Part shown: piece after piece, positions 683 through 11,707 of the stretch
How the letters are laid out: every line of letters begins with the position of its first letter
How positions within the stretch are numbered: position 1 is the stretch's first letter
Assembly: GCA_963835575.1 (NCBI GenBank)
Contig: CAWIGG010000005.1
Location: 160,001-224,000, forward strand
DNA: 64,000 nt
Direction of reading: 5' to 3'
From: an uncultured Spirochaetota bacterium
GTDB taxonomy: Bacteria; Spirochaetota; Brevinematia; Brevinematales; JAOACQ01
The notes under the pieces: model-generated
Told to the model about the DNA's origin: nothing
Database searches by the model: none
Seen by the model: only the letters and a program-made list of their open reading frames with translations
Made by a program: the position numbers and the translations under genes

Positions 683-2360
683 GAGTCTGTCGCAAAAGCA
701 ATAAAACGAATCAGCAATGTCCTATTGAAAATGGCTTTTTTAAAATTTTATAACTTTCTCGGGTAATATGATCACTCAGTCCGGATTTTTTACTATTTTC
801 AGTCCCCTAATCCTACAATTTAATCCCCAAAGCCGCCATTTTCCTGAAATTGTACGCAATGCAGACCATATGCCAGATAGTGTTTACACTATCCAGACCG
901 CGGTAGTAAAACCTTCCGAAGTTGAAGTACTCTTTTATCGTCCCGAAAATGTGCTCGATCAGGCAGGCACGCTCATTGTAAGTTCTTTTACCTTCAATAC
1001 TCCTAAGCTTTTCCTTCATCTTGCGCCTTAATTCAACCGTTTCAAAATATTCATACTTTACATTAAACCGTTTGTTTTTTAATGCTTCCAGCTTACCGGC
1101 GCAATTTGAAAGCAGCTTGCACTTCCTGCACAACTCGCGCTTTGGATAGAAACGGTAATTCTTGACTCCCCGATCATTATAAGCTCTTTCCGCGCACATA
1201 ATCTGGCCTCCGGGGCATTTGATTTTCCTGATATTACCGTCAATTATTAATTCACAGTCTTTGGATGTTATTTTATCCTTGTTCTTTCTCTTTTTCGGAC
1301 TTCCGTCTTCTTCTTTTCCTTCGGGGATATAAAGGTCGATCTTTTTATCTTCACCGTATTGGATATTATCCGATGTGAAATATCCGGCGTCCAGCGTGAA
1401 CTTTGTGTCTTCCTTCGGCTCTTCCTGGTGATCCATTACTTCCTCTATCATCGGGACAGCAAGGTTACGGTCGCTTGCGCAGTCTGATACCATCGCGCCG
1501 GTCAGAAATTCATTTTTACTGTCAACGGCGGCCTGGCAATTATACCCGGGGCCGATTGATCCGTTATTCATTTTCATTAACCTGGCGTCTTTGTCTGTCA
1601 GGTTTACGCTTTCCGTTTCGTCTAAATTCCTGTCCTCAACTGTTTTCAGAAATTTATCTATCCCGGATTTCTGCTGTTCAAACTTCTTGAGTTTATTTGC
1701 CATCCTTTTGGAATATTTATCATCGGTATTGCTGTTCACCGTTTCCTGGAGGATTTTTAAGATCTTTTCCTCGATTTTATCCTTTTTATCCCGGAATTCC
1801 TTCGCATTCCCCGTGAAATTCCTGTTGGCCGATGCCTTTATCTTTGTACCGTCTATAGCTTCCAGTTCATAACTGATAAAACCCGATTTCGCCAGAATGT
1901 ATACCATTTTCCCGAAAATACTAACGATTTCATCCAGGTATTTATTGATAAATCTACAGATATTACTGTGGTCAACGGTGGTATTTCCCGCGAGATAAAT
2001 CGTGTTCAGGTCGTTTTTCATCCTTTTTTCTATTTTACGTGAAGTGTAAATACCGGACGCGAAGCTGTAAAACAGGACTTTCAGCATCATTGTAGGGTTG
2101 ACCGCTTTTGCTCCCGTTGTTTGATTCCGCAGTTTAACGGCAAATTCAGCGGGGGAAATATAGCTCTCAACATAATCGTCAATGACTTTGACCAGCAGAT
2201 TGTTTTCCCTGATTTTGTCGGGATCGACGGTCAGCCAGTAGATTTGATCGCGAATATATTTTTTGAATTTCCCCAGCATTTGACACCTCTTAAATATGGT
2301 TTTATTATATTCTATCGTAAGTTATGAAAAATGTACATGAAGAGCTTTTGCGACAGACTC
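683..2360 (-). mobile_element. IS1182-family insertion sequence
   Basis: Perfect 17-bp TIR GAGTCTGTCGCAAAAGC (683-699 / 2344-2360); 4-bp target duplication AGCG (679-682, 2361-2364). Confidence 0.92.
813..2279 (-). CDS. IS1182-family DDE transposase
   Basis: DUF772-like N-terminus (PTMMLKVLFY..SRKIE), AIDGTKIKA, TDKDARLMK, GYNCQ, LDAGY, IEHIFGTIK. Confidence 0.92.
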   Translation of the reverse strand: MLGKFKKYIRDQIYWLTVDPDKIRENNLLVKVIDDYVESYISPAEFAVKLRNQTTGAKAVNPTMMLKVLFYSFASGIYTSRKIEKRMKNDLNTIYLAGNTTVDHSNICRFINKYLDEIVSIFGKMVYILAKSGFISYELEAIDGTKIKASANRNFTGNAKEFRDKKDKIEEKILKILQETVNSNTDDKYSKRMANKLKKFEQQKSGIDKFLKTVEDRNLDETESVNLTDKDARLMKMNNGSIGPGYNCQAAVDSKNEFLTGAMVSDCASDRNLAVPMIEEVMDHQEEPKEDTKFTLDAGYFTSDNIQYGEDKKIDLYIPEGKEEDGSPKKRKNKDKITSKDCELIIDGNIRKIKCPGGQIMCAERAYNDRGVKNYRFYPKRELCRKCKLLSNCAGKLEALKNKRFNVKYEYFETVELRRKMKEKLRSIEGKRTYNERACLIEHIFGTIKEYFNFGRFYYRGLDSVNTIWHMVCIAYNFRKMAALGIKL

Positions 2361-2611: not shown

Positions 2612-2702
2612 AACTCCCGTAGGCGACTCCCAAAAGACAGGCTCCTGGTTTACTCAAATATTTCTTTTCTAACAATCCCTTCCCGTCTTGTAAGCTATAT
2701 TT

Positions 2703-2913
2703 TGGAGAAAAAGTTTACAAAAAATAATTCTTCAGTAGAATACCTCCTTGTGGAAGTTGTTGCTCACTACCCGCCTGCCTTCTGGTTTGAAACCAAGGCA
2801 CACAGGAAGATTGCCAACTCCACAAGGACCGTTTTGGTCTCTTAAAACAATTGCCAGGATATTCCCTTGAATAATCCTGTCGCTCATTACAAGGGTGCCG
2901 AAATGGAACGGTC
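2703..2913 (+). ncRNA. IS110 bridge RNA (5' stem-loop, target-binding loop, donor-binding loop)
   Basis: Three predicted stem-loops: 2703-2734, 2746-2827, 2827-2913. Internal loops match the junctions: TACCCGCCT ~ TTCCCGTCT, ACAGGAAG = rc CTTCCTGT, TAAAACAAT = right end, TTACAAG = rc CTTGTAA. RNA ends are approximate. Confidence 0.8.
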
Positions 2914-2931
2914 TGATATTTTAATCTGCTG

Positions 2932-4606
2932 TTGCCTGTCGGTTTTTATAACATGCTTCATGGACATACGGCAGGGTTCCCGTTAAAATAAAACGGGAGA
3001 AAAAGATGGCAAGATTTGAAAAGAACAGCCTGGAGCAGGGTGAGTTCCTCGCGATCAATATAGGCGAGCAGTTTGATGAGAATTCCAGAGAATTTATACT
3101 AAAAGAATTCATCAAAAACCGTATTAAACTGGAGGATTTCGCGGCTTACTATAAGAACGACCATAGAGGCAGAGAGATTAAAAATCCTCGGGATGTGATC
3201 TGTGCGGTACTCTACGGTTACATTACGGGAAATCGTATCAGCCGAAAGATAGAAGATTTGCTGAAAAAACACATTGGGTTTATGTATGTTTCAAACCGGC
3301 TGAAAATTGACCATTCGGTAATTTGCGAGTTCAAGGTACTTTTTCAGGAAAAGATCGAGGAGTTGTTCAGCCAGCTTTTATATATACTCAACGAAATGGG
3401 GTCTATAGATTGGGACATGGTAGTGGGTGACGGCACAAAGATCAAGGCCTACGCGAGTAAGAATAAGAATGTGGGAAAGAAACATACCCGGAAGCTGATG
3501 GACACTTACCAGAAGATGGCGGAAAAGATTGTGAAACAAGACCTGGAACTGGAAGAATCTTACCGGGAAGGCAAGCTGGAGCAGCCTTATTACGAAGCGG
3601 AGAAGAAGCGGGTATCAAGGCGGAAAAAGATTTACGATAGTGTTTTGAACCAAATCGATGAATACAAAAAACAGGTAGAGAGAGGGGAAAAGACAGACGA
3701 AGAATTCACCAACCTGACTGATCCCGAAAGCAAGCTGATGTCTGGAAATCCGCATAGTGTGTTTATACAGGGATATAATTCGGCGATGATGGTCAGTAAT
3801 AATGATGTGATTATAGATTTTGAAGCAATCACAACACCGGAAAAACAGCATACGGAAGAAATGGTAAAGAGGGTGGAACAGAAAAAAGCGGAATTAAAAG
3901 TTGATAAGGCTAGCAAATACCTTTTTGATTCGGGTTTTCAGGACATGGAAGAGACAATCCGGATGGTGGAGGAAGGAAAAGACCTTTATGTGGATACGAA
4001 AGAGCGGGATTTCAGTGATAAATCACAGAAGCGAAGAGACTTTAAACTGGAAAAGATTGATGACGAATATATCCTGGGATGCCGGGGCGGCCGTAAGGAA
4101 AATGGGTATTTAGATCGAAATAACCAAAGATATACATTTTTGTATTCACGGAAGGGCTGTGAAAGATGTCCATTTTTCAGTGAGTGTTATAAAAACATCA
4201 AACCGAAAACACAGCAAAAGACAGTAATTTTCAGTGAGTTTGAATTGAATAATCGGTCTAAGATTGATGCTTATTTAACAAAACTTTACAGCGAAGAAGG
4301 GCAAAAGATATACAACCGCAGGATAGGTAAAGAACACGTATTTTCAAACATCAAAACACAGAAGGGTTATGTTCAGACAGTTTACAGAGGTCAACGGAAA
4401 GTGAATTTGGAGCTATGCTGGGTATCCCTTGCGCATAATTTTATGAAATATGCCCAATATTTGAGAAAATAGAGAGGATTTTGTATAGTCTGAGTATCGA
4501 TTATTCGAAATTTATTATTAAAATCAGCTAAGCTGACAAAATTTTTATTTGCCCGCTTATTGTAAGGGGCTGGTTTGACTCCGAAAATGAAATAACCGAC
4601 AGGCAA
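2932..4606 (+). mobile_element. IS1182-family insertion sequence nested in the IS110
   Basis: 13-bp TIR TTGCCTGTCGGTT (2932-2944) / AACCGACAGGCAA (4594-4606); 4-bp duplication GCTG (2928-2931, 4607-4610). Confidence 0.9.
3006..4472 (+). CDS. IS1182-family DDE transposase
   Basis: SRKIEDL, DGTKIKAYAS, TDPESKLM, QGYN, FDSGF, EHVFSNIK. Confidence 0.9.
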   Translation: MARFEKNSLEQGEFLAINIGEQFDENSREFILKEFIKNRIKLEDFAAYYKNDHRGREIKNPRDVICAVLYGYITGNRISRKIEDLLKKHIGFMYVSNRLKIDHSVICEFKVLFQEKIEELFSQLLYILNEMGSIDWDMVVGDGTKIKAYASKNKNVGKKHTRKLMDTYQKMAEKIVKQDLELEESYREGKLEQPYYEAEKKRVSRRKKIYDSVLNQIDEYKKQVERGEKTDEEFTNLTDPESKLMSGNPHSVFIQGYNSAMMVSNNDVIIDFEAITTPEKQHTEEMVKRVEQKKAELKVDKASKYLFDSGFQDMEETIRMVEEGKDLYVDTKERDFSDKSQKRRDFKLEKIDDEYILGCRGGRKENGYLDRNNQRYTFLYSRKGCERCPFFSECYKNIKPKTQQKTVIFSEFELNNRSKIDAYLTKLYSEEGQKIYNRRIGKEHVFSNIKTQKGYVQTVYRGQRKVNLELCWVSLAHNFMKYAQYLRK

Positions 4607-4619
4607 GCTGGAGGAAAAA

Positions 4620-5894
4620 ATGCTAATCCGGGATGCTATCGGGATTGATCCCGATTCACAACAGTATGTGTGTATGTATGTCAAAGCGGAAGACTGGAAA
4701 ACGGAACGGAAAGCCTTTCCGGTTACCACAAGCGGCCTTGATAATCTGATCGAATGGACTCGGTCGAAAAATGACCCGATTATCGCCATCGAGGGAAGCA
4801 ACGGGCAGAGTAAGCCCTTAGAGAAAGTGCTTCGTAAGGAATCGATGACCTATTACTCGTTTAAAGCAAGGGATGTTGAACAAAAGAGGAAAAGCCAGCT
4901 CCCGGCGGGAAAGAACAACGAAAAGGATGCTCATGCCGCCGCTCTTTTGGCTTTAGAGCGTGAAATGAACGGTTCTCTGGAAAAATGGAGAAGGGTCTAT
5001 CCTGTTGACAGCGAATTACAGACGATAACCCGGAAATATGAAAGTGTAAGCGGCAGGATCACAGAGGAAATATCCGGGCTGTGGAAGCTTTTATGCGAGG
5101 CTTCCCCGGATGTTTACCTGTTCTTAAGCGGCAAGAATATGGAGACGGATAACAGACGTAATGTTTTGAATAGCGCAGGAGTACTGAATTTGCTGTGTAA
5201 TTGTCCCGATTTAAGCCAATGGAGGAGATTAAGCGCGGAGAAAATGAAAGAGCTGATGGGTGGAGGCTCTTATAGAGGCCGGGATAAGACCATCGCCGGC
5301 TTACAGGTAATAGCCCAAAGAATCTTGGGTGTAGCGGGCCCCATTTCCATGATGATCCGGCAATCTGCTGAAAATATTATTCTTTTGAAAGGCCATAAGG
5401 AAGAAATGAAGAAGATTTTGGATAATCTGGCTGAATCCAGGGAAGCTGTCCGGGTTTTAGCCTATGACGAATCCAATGGCAATGGGTTGAAAGGAATCGG
5501 CGTGATCACTGCCTCTACGATGATAGCCGAGATTATTCATATCAATCGTTTTGTTAAAGAGGACAGCCTGGCGTTATATGCGGGATTCGGTATGGTGGAA
5601 GATGAAACCGGAAAGAAAAATAGGGGTGAAAGAAAGAAGATGAAACATACTCACGATTATAACCGCCGTTTGAAAAACGCCTTTATGAACGCGGCCAAGA
5701 ACTTTGTTCACTGGAATCCGGACCACCATATTTCCGGCATGCACAGGAATTTGATAAAAAATGGAATGAGCAGGCTCGAAGCGAATAAAAGGGTTGCCAG
5801 AGCATTAGTCCGTAAGATATTTCGGATATTAAAGGACTATGAGTCTGAAAATATAAGGAAAATGGAAGAAAACGGGGTGGCAAAAGTGGGTTAG
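4620..5894 (+). CDS. IS110-family DEDD recombinase/transposase
   Basis: IGID, IAIEGS, KNNEKDA, GIGVITASTMIAEI, LALYAG..ETG, NRRLKNAF, RVARAL; GGAGG RBS. Confidence 0.9.
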   Translation: MLIRDAIGIDPDSQQYVCMYVKAEDWKTERKAFPVTTSGLDNLIEWTRSKNDPIIAIEGSNGQSKPLEKVLRKESMTYYSFKARDVEQKRKSQLPAGKNNEKDAHAAALLALEREMNGSLEKWRRVYPVDSELQTITRKYESVSGRITEEISGLWKLLCEASPDVYLFLSGKNMETDNRRNVLNSAGVLNLLCNCPDLSQWRRLSAEKMKELMGGGSYRGRDKTIAGLQVIAQRILGVAGPISMMIRQSAENIILLKGHKEEMKKILDNLAESREAVRVLAYDESNGNGLKGIGVITASTMIAEIIHINRFVKEDSLALYAGFGMVEDETGKKNRGERKKMKHTHDYNRRLKNAFMNAAKNFVHWNPDHHISGMHRNLIKNGMSRLEANKRVARALVRKIFRILKDYESENIRKMEENGVAKVG

Positions 5895-6093
5895 AAACCC
5901 TGCGGAAATATTCCGCGAGCAACACCTCCATTTTCTTCCGCCTTTATTATATCGAACTACTGAGGTTTTTTAAATATTTTGATCGTTTTTTTCTTGACTT
6001 AACTAAAACAATCTTCCTGTTAATTTACCCCCCAATTCGCGTCCATTAGCGTGCATTCGCGGATTATCCATCGGTCTCCCGCGAATACACAAT

Positions 6094-6140: not shown

Positions 6141-7559
6141 TTATTTCTTCTTCTTAATCTCCCCTTCATCGAACACGATCGTGGCGCCGCCGACATTCAG
6201 AACATCGCCGGATTCCAGTATTTTTGTCTTGACGGGCTTGTTGTTGACCATCACATCTTCCTTGCTCTTAAGCGTGTAGACCTGGGTCTTGCCGTCGAAT
6301 ATGATCGTCGCATGCTCGTCTTTGACGGACGGCGCGTTCATAATGGTCAGGTCCGCGTTTTTAGACCCTCCGATGATCGTCTGGCCCTTATTTAGTAACA
6401 GCGACTTGCTGATAATCGTTCCCTTCGGCGCGTCCAGAACTTCCAGCATGGGTTTTGTATTCGTATTCTTAAATTTAATGAGCGACAACAGCCATAATAA
6501 TAGAAGGGCAAGAAGAAGCGCCAGAAGAAGCCAGAGGGTAAATTCCTTTAAAGGCATGCCGAAGAGGACGCTCGAAAAATAATACCGGGTCGAGCTTACC
6601 TTGCTGTTATCACCTGCTGTCATATCCACTTTTACATATTTTTTGAGCGCGGGCTCCATTCCTGCCTTATAGGTGATCATAAACTCATTCAGGATCTGCT
6701 CTTTGATCCTGATATAAATATTCTTCAGTTCTTCCTCGTTTTTAGCGTCAAACACCACGCCGCCCGTGTTCTGTGAGATTGTTTTCAGACCAGTGTCCTT
6801 TTTATCGTTGCCGTAGTTTATAACAAATACCGACACGCCTTCCATCAGGCTTTTTTCAATAGCTTCCTGGTATTTAAAAATCTTTGTGCCGAAATCCTTG
6901 TGCGGCTTTTTGACATATTCATAATAGGGCATATTCTCGCCATCGGAAAGAATGATGACGGCTTTTCTGCCCGACACCTGTTTGAAATCTTCCATGGCCA
7001 GATACAGGCTTGAATAAATTTCAGTCCATGCTTCCTCGCTGGACGGTTTCTTGATCTCATTCAGGTAATTCGCGATCTTATTTTTATCATTAATGGGCAT
7101 TGAATAAATAGTATAAAATGAATTAAAGGAAGCGATCCCGACCGTGTCCCTCTGGTTTTTTATGCTCTGAAGAAAATTGACAATGGCTTTTTTCGCGCTG
7201 GAGATCCGCATATTATCCTCATCCGGGGTTTCCCTTCCGTTAAAATCATCATACATACTGCCGGAATTATCCAGAAGCAGAAGAAAATTAATACCGTTTT
7301 CATAATTCGCTTCCGGCTTGAAGTTCAATATTTTAACCGGTTTGAAATTCTTCTGGTCGGCGGATTCAGATACATTAAACCTGTTCTGCTCGATGTTTTT
7401 TACAGGATTACCCTTATTGTCCAGAACGCTGATGTATAAATTAATTTTCTGATTAAGCAGTAGACGGGAATTATCAATCTGCGAGATATTGACAGAATCG
7501 CCGAACACCCATTGAAAGACAAGAAATGATAAGACTATCAAAATAGATTTTTTAAACAT
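6141..7559 (-). CDS. signal peptide + VWA domain + TM helix + C-terminal FHA-like domain
   Basis: MIDAS LLLDNSGSM, IILSDGEN; Leu-rich TM; C-terminal IIGG..HATI..LESGDVLNVG. Confidence 0.85.
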   Translation of the reverse strand: MFKKSILIVLSFLVFQWVFGDSVNISQIDNSRLLLNQKINLYISVLDNKGNPVKNIEQNRFNVSESADQKNFKPVKILNFKPEANYENGINFLLLLDNSGSMYDDFNGRETPDEDNMRISSAKKAIVNFLQSIKNQRDTVGIASFNSFYTIYSMPINDKNKIANYLNEIKKPSSEEAWTEIYSSLYLAMEDFKQVSGRKAVIILSDGENMPYYEYVKKPHKDFGTKIFKYQEAIEKSLMEGVSVFVINYGNDKKDTGLKTISQNTGGVVFDAKNEEELKNIYIRIKEQILNEFMITYKAGMEPALKKYVKVDMTAGDNSKVSSTRYYFSSVLFGMPLKEFTLWLLLALLLALLLLWLLSLIKFKNTNTKPMLEVLDAPKGTIISKSLLLNKGQTIIGGSKNADLTIMNAPSVKDEHATIIFDGKTQVYTLKSKEDVMVNNKPVKTKILESGDVLNVGGATIVFDEGEIKKKK

Positions 7560-7631
7560 AATTTACTCCTTTTCCGTCAAAGTCCGCCGGCAGCGCTTTA
7601 CGCCGCATGCGTCTCTGTATGGAATATATTT

Positions 7632-8522
7632 TTAACTATACTTGAATAAAAACTTCGCGCTGCCGATCTGTATGACATCATCAAGCTGCAGTTCTTTCTG
7701 CTCGGCAGCATCATCATTAACTTTGATCCTGCCGTTCTTCGCCTTGTTTTTAATGCTGACATTTATCCCTTTGGCTATCACTTCGGCATGATAAGATTCA
7801 ATGTCTTCATAATCCGAAAGCCTGATGTCGCTCCAGCCGGAAGTCCCGATCCTTATCTTTCTCTGATTGATCAGGAATTCCTTCCCTTTATACTTACCGT
7901 TCAATAACCTGAGGACCCCGAAAGAAAACGAGCTTTCGATAATTCCGTAAAAAAAGCCTATCATCAGCCCGAATACCAGGAACCCGATCAGCCTGGCGAT
8001 CAGGAGATTATTGATCATGAGGGGGAGATACTCTACGGCCAGCCCTCCTATGATGCCGCCGATAAGACCGCCCAGAAAACCGACCTTCATTTTATTAAAT
8101 GAAAGCGAGCGGAAGCCTTCCGTCATGCCGATAAAAATCCCCAGTATGGCCCAGCCCCCGGCCCGCGTCAGAGGCACGGCGATCTTATTAATGCTGGAAA
8201 CGGAATGAAGCAGTTTATCCCCGACTATGAATAACGCCGCCTGCCCGGCTAAAAAACCGGCGGCTCCGCCGATAACGCCTACAATAGCGCCGGTAATGAC
8301 GCCTTTCAATATTTTGCCGCTATCCGCCAGAATAATGCCTTCGCTGGAGCCGAAAAAACCGCACATAAAAATTCCGACAATGACTCCCAGGGTTATGCTG
8401 AAAATTAAATAGGAAGGAAATTTTGCCTGAAATATGATGATTGATTCCACCATGGCCCACGAAGCGAGCCCGCCGAGAAGTCCGATAATTGAAAGAAAAA
8501 CCCTTTTCATTAATGTTGACAT
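7632..8522 (-). CDS. Gly-rich multi-TM protein with C-terminal FHA-like domain
   Basis: About 6 hydrophobic helices; IRIG..YHAEV..LQLDDVIQIG. Confidence 0.8.
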   Translation of the reverse strand: MSTLMKRVFLSIIGLLGGLASWAMVESIIIFQAKFPSYLIFSITLGVIVGIFMCGFFGSSEGIILADSGKILKGVITGAIVGVIGGAAGFLAGQAALFIVGDKLLHSVSSINKIAVPLTRAGGWAILGIFIGMTEGFRSLSFNKMKVGFLGGLIGGIIGGLAVEYLPLMINNLLIARLIGFLVFGLMIGFFYGIIESSFSFGVLRLLNGKYKGKEFLINQRKIRIGTSGWSDIRLSDYEDIESYHAEVIAKGINVSIKNKAKNGRIKVNDDAAEQKELQLDDVIQIGSAKFLFKYS

Positions 8523-8547
8523 ATTCTCACTCCTTCTAAATTATTAA

Positions 8548-8760
8548 GGGCAGTTTCAGAACTGCCGCCTTTGTTTTTAATCATGCTGCCCCTCACCATT
8601 TTGTGAACTCCAGCGGTGCAGCCCCAGCAAAATGGTGAGGGGCAGCGTCGTTTTTATTAACCAAAAAGCTTTTTATATCCGGGGCAGTTTCCAATCCCCG
8701 CGTCAGTTTATTTGCTTCTCAGATGCCGATATATAGACTCGTGCAGGATTGGAACTGCAC
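8548..8760. repeat. MITE/REP-like palindrome cluster (GGCAGTT..AACTGC family)
   Basis: Nested inverted repeats (GCTGCCCCTCACCATTTTG / CAAAATGGTGAGGGGCAGC); shares TTTTTATTAACCAAAA and GGCAGTT ends with 47108-47270. Confidence 0.6.
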
Positions 8761-8761
8761 C

Positions 8762-10670
8762 TTATTTAATCCTTAAGTTAATTTGATCGTTTTTGACATC
8801 ATAATCCACATAAACATTTTTATAACCGTCGGGCGTAATATTGATCGATTCCGATTTTGTCTTTTCACCTTTCTTAATAGTTAAAGTATAGTGTCTGGAA
8901 GCAAGCAGATATTTCTGGCCGCTCTGTGTTGTCGTATTAATTTTAACATACTTTTTATCTTCCCCGCCGGTGTAACAATAGGCATGGTCGTCCAGAAACA
9001 CTTCCAGCCCGTCATAATTTGACTTGATAAAGAGCGTTCCCGCTTTCGGGACAAGATACACATTGATTTTCACTACCGTTTCATAATGACCCACCGGTAT
9101 TGTGATTTTTTTAGGGAGATACCCTTTTTTTTCAAATTTAAAGTAATACTTCTTGCTGTTGACAAGCATGTTTTTCAACCTGCTTTTGAAAATCGCCCAC
9201 TTGATCCATCCGTAATTACCAAACACGGAAATATTCACATCATCCAGCTGGGTTTCAACGTCCCTGTCATAAATATTGAACCGGATGTCCATGGGCAGCA
9301 AGGGAGGCGCGGAACGGCTGATTTCTATTTCATCAGCCTTTGACGGGAATTTATAAGATTCCTGTACGGCGACAGGCTCTACAAATATTTCCCTGTAATA
9401 CTTTTCATTTTCGGCTGTCAAATCGAACCTGTATTCCCTGGACGGCAGATAAATTTCATCCGACCTGTATACATTAATATTACCTTTGGTCTTAACAGCA
9501 TTATTCAGGCGGCAGATGACTTTCGCGTATTCGGAATAATTATCATTTTTATTTTTATAAGACAGAGTCCCTGTCATATAATCTTTATCGCCGGTCATAT
9601 AAGCCTTATCCGCTTTTACAGTGATCCTTATTTTTCCATAGCTGTCTCTTGCAAAAAGGTCATAATAGAGGCCTTTATAATAAAGTAAATTGAATGCTCC
9701 GGCCAGAATTAATAAGCTGAAAGCTGTTTTTAAAACAAAAGTCCCGATATTAAAATACTTAACTTTCGGGAGGCTTTTAACTTTCTGAGTATATTCGTCG
9801 CCGAAAACATAATTCCTGATGGCGTCGTTAATTTTCTGCTGTGTTTTGAATTTTCTGAGATACGGCCCCAATTTCGCTATGACAACGCCCAGATCGTTAT
9901 AGCGGTTTTTCGCCCTGTGATGCATCATCTTCCTGATGATGGACTGGACCCTCGACGGGACATGCGGATTGATCTTGCGGGGCTTTTTATACTTGCCCTT
10001 CTCTATAAGCGATATTGTTTTGGCGGCCATATCGGACGAAAAAGGCAGCTTGCCTGTCGTCATGAAAATAGAACAAAACCCCCATTGAAAAAATATCCGC
10101 CCTTTTATCCACATTCTTGCTGTCCGCGATCTGCTCAGGCGCCATGTAGGAAGGGGTACCAAGGGTCGTGCCTTTCTGGGTCAAACCCGTTTCCGTATCA
10201 TCCTCGGATTTAGCGATGCCAAAGTCGGTCAGTTTGACTTCCCCTTCTTTTGAGATGAGTATATTCGCCGGCTTGATATCCCTGTGGATAACGCCCTTGT
10301 CATGAGCGTATTTCAAACCCTTGCATACCTCTAATAAAATGAGTACCGCGGCCTCGTTTGACAGATGCCTTTTCAATTGAATAAGCTTGTCCAGGCTTAT
10401 TCCGTCGATATATTCCAGGACTATATAATATGATCCGCCCTCCCTGAAATGATCATAAACCTGCACTATATTCTCGCTTCTGAAGTTGAACATAATTTTG
10501 GCTTCTCTTTTAAACCTTTCAACAACCCCTTCTATTCCCTTGAGATTGAGCTGTTTGAGGATTATAAAGCTTTCCAGCGTGGGGTGTTTTGCTTTATAGA
10601 CAGTTCCCATTCCGCCCGAAGCGATTTTTTCTATGACAAGATATTTACCAACTTTTTCCATCATGTCCAT
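8762..10670 (-). CDS. Hanks-type Ser/Thr kinase + TM + extracytoplasmic PEGA-like region; one frameshift near 10065-10068
   Basis: GGMGTVY, HRDIKPAN, TDFGIA, GTPSYMAPEQ. Removing one base from the A4 run joins ...GVLFYF to MTTGKLPF. May be a pseudogene or a sequencing error. Confidence 0.8.
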
Positions 10671-11707
10671 TATCCTTGAATAATTTCTTTTGTCCTGTTC
10701 TGAAGCTCAAAAATATCATGGTCCAGTATTATATCCCTTTCCGCGCTGATCTGCGCAATGATAAACTTAGAGGGATTATGGATTTGAATATACTTTCCGT
10801 CAGCGCGCTTATTATAATAGTCTTTTACCGGCCTGTGCCCTCCGAAATAATAAGCGGCGCTCATCCCTTCGTTTCCCAGGTAATACTCAAGCATTTTTAA
10901 TACGCTGTCGTGTTCGGCCTGGTTATTGTCGGTCCATGTCAATCCCTCTATTATATCCGGATTTCTCCGGTAATTGACGATCTCATTTTTTGAAAAGAAC
11001 CTTTTCGGCTCAGCATGAGAGATCAGAAAATTCTTTCCGACAGCGAACAGCGGCAGCTGTTTCTCAAAAATATAATAGCTCCTCAGGAATTCTTCGCTGA
11101 AAAATTTTGCCACATAAGAGGCGACCATAGGCCCTTCAAGCGCAAATTTCCTGAAAGGGTAATTCCCCTCCCCCTGTTCATTGGAAATGTTTTCATGATT
11201 ACCCTTTAAAAAATGAAAATTCTCGGGAAACGCGCTTTTTGTCTCCATAACCATTTCCATCAGACCCATGCTCTCTTTCATCTCTTTATCCATGTGCGAG
11301 TGGCGGCTGTAACCATCCAGGTATTCATAATGTGCTTCTTTCCATCTTTCCATTTCCCTGCTCTCGGCATGGAAACCGTCGCCCACACAGACTATCTGCA
11401 GTTCATCCCCTGCAAGCTTTTGTATGCTGGTAATACCCTCGCCGTCTTTATAGAACAGTACATTCAGAAAAAAGTCCATTCTCGCATGCAGATCCGGCAT
11501 TATTATGGTAGGAATATACTTTTTTAAATTCAGCAGGCCTCCGGGCATTCCGTCGGAATCCCGGGGCCTGATGTTTCTATCCTCATCCAGCAGCGCTTTG
11601 CTTGCTTCAGTTATAACCGGTAAAAATTCCCCTTCATCCGGCGGCTTTTTACGGTTATAAATTTTAATAAACCTCTGTTTAATTGAATTTAAATTCATTT
11701 TCAGCAA
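10670..11707 (-). CDS. calcineurin-like metallophosphoesterase (PPP-like)
   Basis: PDLHA, VGDGFH, KGNHE, SHA, GGH motifs; stop overlaps the kinase start. Confidence 0.85.
   Translation of the reverse strand: MLKMNLNSIKQRFIKIYNRKKPPDEGEFLPVITEASKALLDEDRNIRPRDSDGMPGGLLNLKKYIPTIIMPDLHARMDFFLNVLFYKDGEGITSIQKLAGDELQIVCVGDGFHAESREMERWKEAHYEYLDGYSRHSHMDKEMKESMGLMEMVMETKSAFPENFHFLKGNHENISNEQGEGNYPFRKFALEGPMVASYVAKFFSEEFLRSYYIFEKQLPLFAVGKNFLISHAEPKRFFSKNEIVNYRRNPDIIEGLTWTDNNQAEHDSVLKMLEYYLGNEGMSAAYYFGGHRPVKDYYNKRADGKYIQIHNPSKFIIAQISAERDIILDHDIFELQNRTKEIIQG

Follow-up and report, generated by a model that had tools for sequence, protein, structure and literature searches.

IS110 recombinases are defined by a DEDD set of acidic residues together with a nucleophilic Ser, and the roles of these residues have been described for IS621. 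D11 and E60 bind Mg2+, E60, D105 and T12 bind it via water, and S241 forms a 5'-phosphoserine. D102, which is not named among the Mg2+ ligands in the parts of that paper available to us, makes a hydrogen bond to G242 and holds the S241 loop (PMC11208158). Mutating any of the five residues, D102 and S241 included, abolishes activity (PMC11208158), and substitutions at the catalytic positions were depleted in a mutational scan of IS622 (10.1101/2025.05.14.653916). The IS621 bridge RNA is laid out as a stem-loop and two looped hairpins (PMC11208160), and the IS621 core is CT (PMC13626964).

Thr at the nucleophile site has precedents in the IS1111 group, where the transposases have SG or TG (Siddiquee et al., PMC11187229). 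The source FASTA of that paper (392 rows) lists IS4321 and ISPa11 with Thr at the nucleophile and DEDD, and contains the motif YSTGG 11 times and HSTGG 6 times; about 900 and over 1,000 insertions were counted for IS4321 and ISPa11, respectively. Among the motif matches viewed in this file (all KTN (17), KNN (7), KDN (5) and KHN (4), and 6 each of KSN (12), KKN (10) and KAN (10)), one protein has Asn at the third position and none has the N-terminal GIDP of the clade described below. The literature searched, which left most subscription papers outside, held no report of an IS110 DEND enzyme, a clade-wide third-position Asn, S241T or D102N; no IS110 paper listed there used 'phosphothreonine', none of the primary IS110 studies listed used 'threonine', and no test of a DNA-phosphothreonine recombination intermediate was found there. 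Thr at the nucleophile site is already known as sequence, and the clade-wide Asn is the new part within this literature. Here, we describe an IS110 element with both residues from a 64,000-nucleotide stretch of an uncultured Spirochaetota genome (assembly GCA_963835575.1, contig CAWIGG010000005.1, positions 160,001 to 224,000), which we call the window and in which all simple coordinates below are given.

Results

The recombinase and its two altered positions

The recombinase ORF contains both IS110 hallmark domains, the RuvC-like PF01548 at residues 7–161 (49.8 bits, cut-off 29) and the Tnp domain PF02371 at residues 290–368 (49.3 bits, cut-off 21.3). Against the NCBIfam IS110 model NF033542 the protein scores 102 bits, under the cut-off of 140, and one clade member (P0026) exceeds this cut-off at 143 bits. 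An AlphaFold2 model of the recombinase has a mean pLDDT of 89.4, and IS621 and ISCro4 chains make up the ten best matches to its fold, at an identity of about 15%.

An earlier note on this DNA had picked out K98-N-N100-E-K-D103 and T330 as non-canonical, and the coordinates it gave are exact. The codons are D10 (GAT, 4647), E58 (GAG, 4791), K98 (AAG, 4911), D103 (GAT, 4926) and G331 (5610), together with those of N100 and T330 (Table 1). N100 pairs with IS621 D102, and T330-G331 with S241-G242, ungapped at each site, both by phmmer of the protein and by hmmsearch with a 40-sequence profile; the profile gives the same placement of N100 and T330 on ISCro4. The enzyme reads D-E-N-D in place of DEDD, which is a variant since all other IS110 features are present, and TG stands where the S(t)G nucleophile motif is expected. 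The note had allowed that alignment might bring a different Ser or Asp into the active site. No substitute Ser is present in the loop around T330 of the window protein.

N100 and T330 are not read errors, because the six copies of the element in the genome are 99.8–100% identical and a contig from a run of another study (X2), which spans the element with 19 differences, is unchanged at both codons. Eighteen of these differences were listed; the remaining one is G>A, and AAC and ACC contain no G.

Table 1 Features of the IS110 element and its surroundings in the window.
Feature	Position	Strand	Basis
Left target half (host DNA)	2679-2686	+	Varies among the six copies around CTTCCYGY
CT core, left junction	2687-2688	+	Identical in 6/6 copies
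IS110 left end with predicted bridge RNA (5' stem-loop, target loop, donor loop)	2689-2931	+	Same sequence as in the four uninterrupted copies
Target-binding loop, predicted; left guide 2766-2774, right guide 2802-2810	2746-2827	+	Guide-flank covariation across the clade
Donor-binding loop, predicted; left guide 2842-2850, right guide 2886-2894	2828-2912	+	Guides match the element's own right-end and left-end termini
IS1182-like element, 1,675 bp, ORF 3006-4472, inside the IS110 left end	2932-4606	+	4-bp duplication at 2928-2931 and 4607-4610
Ribosome-binding site GGAGG	4610-4614	+	Sequence
IS110 recombinase ORF, 424 aa, D10-E58-N100-D103 and T330	4620-5894	+	Pfam domains, alignment, fold model
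N100 codon AAC (IS621 D102 position)	4917-4919	+	N in all 120 listed homologues and all 31 clade representatives; D in all 32 outgroup representatives
T330 codon ACC (IS621 S241 position)	5607-5609	+	T 116, S 4 in 120 listed homologues
Guide-less hairpin with bridge-RNA-loop box motifs, overlapping the ORF end	5864-5939	-	Conservation and covariation
Right end, 118 bp; -35 hexamer 5994-5999, left donor half 6004-6012	5895-6012	+	Common to 6/6 copies
Promoter-like site pointing into the hairpin	5946-5974	-	10/12 consensus match; the scan's 6 matches are near chance (3.7)
CT core 6013-6014 and right target half (host DNA) 6015-6020	6013-6020	+	Comparison of copies and empty sites

Conservation of Asn and Thr across a clade

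A homologue search found 215 proteins among 8,000 scored candidates, and the best 120 of these, query included, were listed and all aligned. D10, E58, N100 and G331 are present in all 120 listed homologues and D103 in 119 (one Ala), and position 330 is occupied by Thr or Ser and no other residue. For a wider comparison we took representatives at 50% identity from the best 150 of 9,738 profile matches, using the 63 proteins of at least 370 residues and leaving out 87 fragments. Within this listed set, 31 representatives score at least 329 bits and are all D-E-N-D, with Thr in 29 and Ser in 2. The other 32 score at most 166 bits and all have Asp at the third position, with Ser in 25 and Thr in 7. 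A quick IQ-TREE tree separates the 31 Asn-bearing proteins from the rest by a branch with SH-aLRT 100, and the seven Asp-plus-Thr proteins cluster elsewhere, outside the Asn clade. D10, E58, D103 and G331 are kept in 31/31 clade representatives of the listed set, as is a hydroxyl residue at position 330. Two further residues distinguish the clade from the outgroup, P11 (28/31 versus 0/32) and D12 (27/31 versus 0/32, absent in 4/31).

Among 87 distinct proteins read from their loci, N100 is encoded by AAC 70 times and AAT 17 times, and position 330 by all four Thr codons (83 times) or by AGC (4 times); the Ser alternative is always AGC, one base away from ACC. Position 329, Glu in the window protein, varies among clade members (S, K, E, T, A). 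The dN/dS ratio lies between 0.05 and 0.38 in 18/18 pairs. Where the host of a full-length locus is named, it is mostly a Spirochaetota MAG; Cloacimonadota, Anaerolineae, Pirellulales and Lentisphaerae have one record each. Matches were present in 5/301 sampled Spirochaetota genomes.

N100 and T330 belong to a clade and are conserved across it, the point that the homologue alignment proposed in the earlier note was meant to decide. Asn is the more unusual feature of the two; the note had overrated the Thr, given that TG has been described for IS1111 transposases (PMC11187229). An obligate coupling of Asn with Thr was considered and rejected, since Asn occurs with Ser in 2/31 representatives and 4/120 listed homologues and Thr occurs with Asp in 7/32 outgroup representatives, IS4321 and ISPa11. 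D12 was likewise rejected as an obligate replacement acid, being missing from 4/31 representatives. A separate group of long DEDD IS110 proteins (P0202, P0234, P0235, P0236, P0243, P0244 and P0250) has a QTG nucleophile motif and no adjacent Ser.

Copies of the element and their insertion sites

Six full copies of the element and one diverged fragment are found in the genome. The uninterrupted form measures 1,645 bp between CT cores, with the ORF set between a left end of 252 nt and a right end of 118 nt. The copies stand at six sites with different flanks, vary at 4/1,645 bases, and each has exact CT junctions. Their target consensus is CTTCCYGY-CT-TCCTGT, and its last 13 bases recur at 19 empty sites in the genome, compared to about 0.3 expected from base composition. 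This is site-specific insertion of the IS110 type, with a short core at both junctions and a single core at empty sites. Reading the core as TGT, with the bridge RNA antisense, was abandoned after guide mapping; the core is CT and TCCTGT is target DNA. The element looks active, and it has spread recently, with precise guide-matched junctions.

The surroundings of the insertions gave several further observations. A dispersed repeat of the ATTCGCG type, found at many intergenic sites, adjoins the insertion (6030–6070), several of the 19 empty sites stand beside such repeats, and IS110 targets often lie at a repeat edge. Six empty sites (G000:C2:501316, C4:572881, C4:963342, C5:94951, C5:413239 and C5:349087) consist of left target, CT and TGT and resemble the left junction minus the element; they could be repeat variants or footprints. 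A 5'-truncated relative (L130, G000:C2:1329629-1330118) is 87% identical over 111 residues, has the Thr and retains its own right end. Two loci, L084 and L112, have donor-like host DNA after the right end in place of a guide-matched target, resembling half-match insertions described in a preprint (10.64898/2026.08.31.748434).

A joint between right and left ends was sought in the contigs of four runs, compared with an uninterrupted copy, and none was seen in these contigs, which drop rare forms. The junction pattern had 0 matches in viral contigs and a plasmid search gave no match for the element. The sole junction-like case, L067, amounts to 7 bases at a contig end, and in L084 and L112 the right end is not joined to its own left end.

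Predicted bridge RNA, guides and junction promoter

The left end is predicted to encode a bridge RNA at about 2689–2912 in the window copy. It folds with z = -4.8 (0/200 shuffles as good) into a 5' stem-loop and two hairpins with internal loops, in which four 9-nt guides sit between short conserved boxes. An Rfam search returned one chance-level match only (E 0.11). The left target guide resembles the left target, and the right target guide is the exact reverse complement of the core and right flank. The left and right donor guides match the right-end and left-end termini, respectively. Thus, a left end with target and donor loops and matching guides is present by sequence prediction.

We compared guides and flanks over 126 loci, of which 93 had a strong match and an intact N-terminus and 61 a right guide with 7 flank bases, giving 41 distinct guides. 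Right target guides agree with their own flanks at 187/246 bases over the 41 distinct guides (shuffled mean 68, maximum 106, 0/10,000), with 7/41 matching at no more than 3/6 bases. Left target guides agree at 202/266 bases over 38 guides when the best offset is allowed, against a shuffled mean of 140 (0/10,000). Donor guides are near-constant across the clade. When the ends are joined, a -35 and a -10 with a 17-bp spacer result in 63/66 loci having a -35; the -10 hexamer of this predicted circle-junction promoter lies at 2691–2696. The lineage has thus gone on moving into many re-programmed target sites with Asn and Thr in its recombinase.

An IS1182-like insertion and the neighbouring genes

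The left end of the window copy is split by an IS1182-like element, which ends 13 bp before the recombinase ATG and parts the bridge RNA from the ORF. Thus, the bridge RNA of this copy lies 1.7 kb upstream of its ORF. The ORF, ribosome-binding site, ends and guides had been called intact in the earlier note, and this holds for the guides and both termini, with the left end itself divided by 1,675 bp. The best NCBIfam match of the inserted element is IS1182, at 213 bits under a cut-off of 270, and the genome has 24 of its left ends, 23 with a matched right end. Twenty-two copies of 1,675 bp differ at two positions only, and most have 4-bp duplications after T-rich DNA. Two of the six IS110 copies, the window copy and one whose IS1182-like insert lies at G000:C2:1643158-1644832, are interrupted at the same left-end point and differ at 3/4 of the variable IS110 sites, so that the compound may have moved as a unit or may have been hit twice.

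At its right end the IS1182-like element has an outward promoter-like site (4461–4489, 10/12) from which the recombinase gene could be driven. Another IS1182 family transposase, different from this one (813–2279, minus strand; 307 bits, over the cut-off) lies 400 bp from the IS110 left end. On the other side, a minus-strand cluster at 6141–11707 presumably comprises, judging from motifs, a vWA/FHA-like protein, an FHA membrane protein, a Ser/Thr kinase and a metallophosphoesterase-like gene. The putative kinase occupies two overlapping ORFs (9987–10670 and 8762–10162, minus strand) and is possibly frameshifted.

A conserved antisense hairpin at the 3' end

The minus-strand hairpin overlapping the end of the ORF has two inner stems where the bridge-RNA loops have guides. 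It was found in 62/93 loci (46 distinct). Over 36 aligned sequences 94% of cells are paired, compared to 39–55% in slid controls, and 18/22 pairs show two-sided change (0/500 shuffles). The large number of G-U pairs favours the minus strand. In 41/46 loci a TTGAC-like hexamer is found 53 nt ahead of the box, and the window copy is without the hexamer at that place. The ORF reads through the hairpin in 44/46 loci, and coding constraint might be the source of the conservation. The hairpin may yield a guide-less decoy RNA. The literature searched for a second small RNA in IS110 elements offered only ISPpu9 Asr9/Ssr9, as a loose precedent.

Discussion

On balance, we consider it quite probable that the element is autonomous, was recently active and represents a distinct IS110 lineage, and that its recombinase, with Asn for the third Asp and Thr as nucleophile, would carry out IS621-type recombination via phosphothreonine. 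A phosphothreonine intermediate is likely. By analogy with IS621, the element ends would join into a circle and create a sigma-70 promoter, with the -35 from the right end and the -10 from the left end. Bridge RNA would be made from this junction, and a recombinase tetramer would pair the circle with its target. D10 and E58 would bind Mg2+, with D103 acting through water. The T330 hydroxyl would attack beside the CT core to form a 5'-phosphothreonine link, followed by strand exchange. N100 would play the part that D102 has in IS621, a hydrogen bond to the glycine after the nucleophile that holds the loop in the RuvC site of the partner, and the amide oxygen of Asn could presumably accept such a bond. 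Speculatively, D12, two residues past D10, may restore the lost charge. The pattern of conservation is consistent with this scheme, in that the three metal-site acids and the glycine are retained in 31/31 clade representatives, the latch residue alone is altered, and Thr retains the hydroxyl.

Several points count against this reading. D102 and S241 are essential in IS621, the IS622 scan showed depletion of substitutions at catalytic positions, no joint was seen in the contigs of the four runs, and 7/41 guides match their flanks poorly; in addition, D12 is gone in 4/31 representatives, the NF033542 score falls under its cut-off, and canonical IS110 genes could in principle act in trans. The essential role of both positions in IS621 (PMC11208158) would suit a catalytically dead RNA-guided DNA binder, either domesticated or mobilised by a canonical IS110 recombinase acting in trans, which the earlier note had offered as its alternative. 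The genome does have other IS110 genes, one of them DEDD with Ser in two copies, trans-mobilised IS110 satellites exist (ssr9/MITEPpu9; PMC12288879), and purifying selection by itself suits a binder too. However, a binder would not account for the metal-binding D10, E58 and D103 and a hydroxyl at 330 in 31/31 representatives, for donor guides, termini and junction promoter spacing kept clade-wide, or for copies at guide-matched sites with exact cores. It would also need a helper, and the other IS110 genes are 23–26% identical over about 115 residues and are without the donor ends of this element. We regard a dead enzyme as improbable, and the note's other suggestion, a phosphothreonine subfamily, fares better: the clade-conserved residues and the recent spread at guide-matched junctions bear it out, with the chemistry itself argued from IS621.

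An active enzyme that uses other chemistry is unlikely, if slightly less so than a dead one. Another residue might attack, or the DNA 3'-OH or water might act in a one-step transesterification, leaving T330 a structural role. The active-site surroundings are remodelled, with P11 for IS621 T12 and with D12 and N100 specific to the clade, and PDB searches gave no structure of a Thr-bearing member. Yet T330-G331 falls on S241-G242 without a gap, and no adjacent Ser can replace T330, since Glu occupies position 329 here and the clade varies at that site. Ser is also the sole alternative tolerated at 330 among the listed homologues, and the junctions fit IS621-type exchange at the CT core. Private mutation, decay or sequencing error, the refuting case raised in the note, can practically be dismissed. 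The interrupted left end of the window copy would fit decay, but Asn is found in six copies, in the contig of another study and in 120 listed homologues, and both Asn codons and all four Thr codons are in use.

A more elaborate version of the phosphothreonine reading seems to us possible though doubtful. It would combine a rebuilt composite active site, with phosphothreonine, an Asn latch and the carboxylate moved to D12, with a guide-less antisense RNA whose recombinase-binding boxes would serve as a decoy or brake. If true, the clade would be a natural test bed for the role of D102 and would supply compact programmable recombinases, distant from IS621, that combine a single fixed donor with many natural targets.

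A mobile Asn/Thr lineage shows that the third carboxylate of the DEDD set is replaceable, in line with a loop-holding role for this residue. With no neighbouring Ser, the clade is a clean case for testing a DNA-phosphothreonine recombination intermediate. Filters that require DEDD or the NCBIfam cut-off would drop such enzymes as dead. With at least 41 natural target guides against a single near-constant donor, the clade is of use in the search for genome-editing orthologues, and the conserved antisense hairpin may be an undescribed regulator.

Comparison with known systems

The S(t)G loop lost in TIGR-Tas/Nop5-like proteins is retained as TG in the clade, whereas TasR (9mty) is without the motif, and the window protein scores 32 bits against the TIGR_Tas model (cut-off 100). 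IS4321 and ISPa11 of the IS1111 group, both known to be mobile, likewise have Thr at the nucleophile site, but keep the third Asp, are 330–350 residues long, have a downstream RNA and sub-terminal inverted repeats, and carry a Ser just before the Thr. The window element instead has its guides upstream and a 424-residue protein, in contrast to the long downstream non-coding region with its guide RNA and the 330–350 residues of IS1111, and no sub-terminal inverted repeats of 11–13 bp are apparent in its ends as read. The DEDD relatives (P0192–P0267, 32 full-length representatives) are the nearest outgroup, of similar length and with Thr in 7/32, but Asp is invariant at their third position, P11 and D12 are absent from all of them, and they score at most 166 bits compared to at least 329 for the clade.

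IS621 and ISCro4 (IS622) share with the element the RuvC, coiled-coil and Tnp domains, the CT core and a target in a dispersed repeat, as well as, by prediction for the element, a left-end bridge RNA with a 5' stem-loop and target and donor loops and a promoter at the joined ends. The clade differs in having Asn for D102, Thr for S241 and Pro-Asp for T12-A13, in its length of 424–480 residues compared to about 326, and in the extra 3' antisense hairpin. An extra small RNA is also found in ISPpu9, an IS110 element with Asr9 and Ssr9, where one of the RNA genes lies downstream of the transposase, but Ssr9 is a separate MITE-like module with its own ends, present in few strains (PMC12288879). The hairpin described here, in contrast to Ssr9, is internal to the element, reads on the opposite strand and shows clade-wide conservation.
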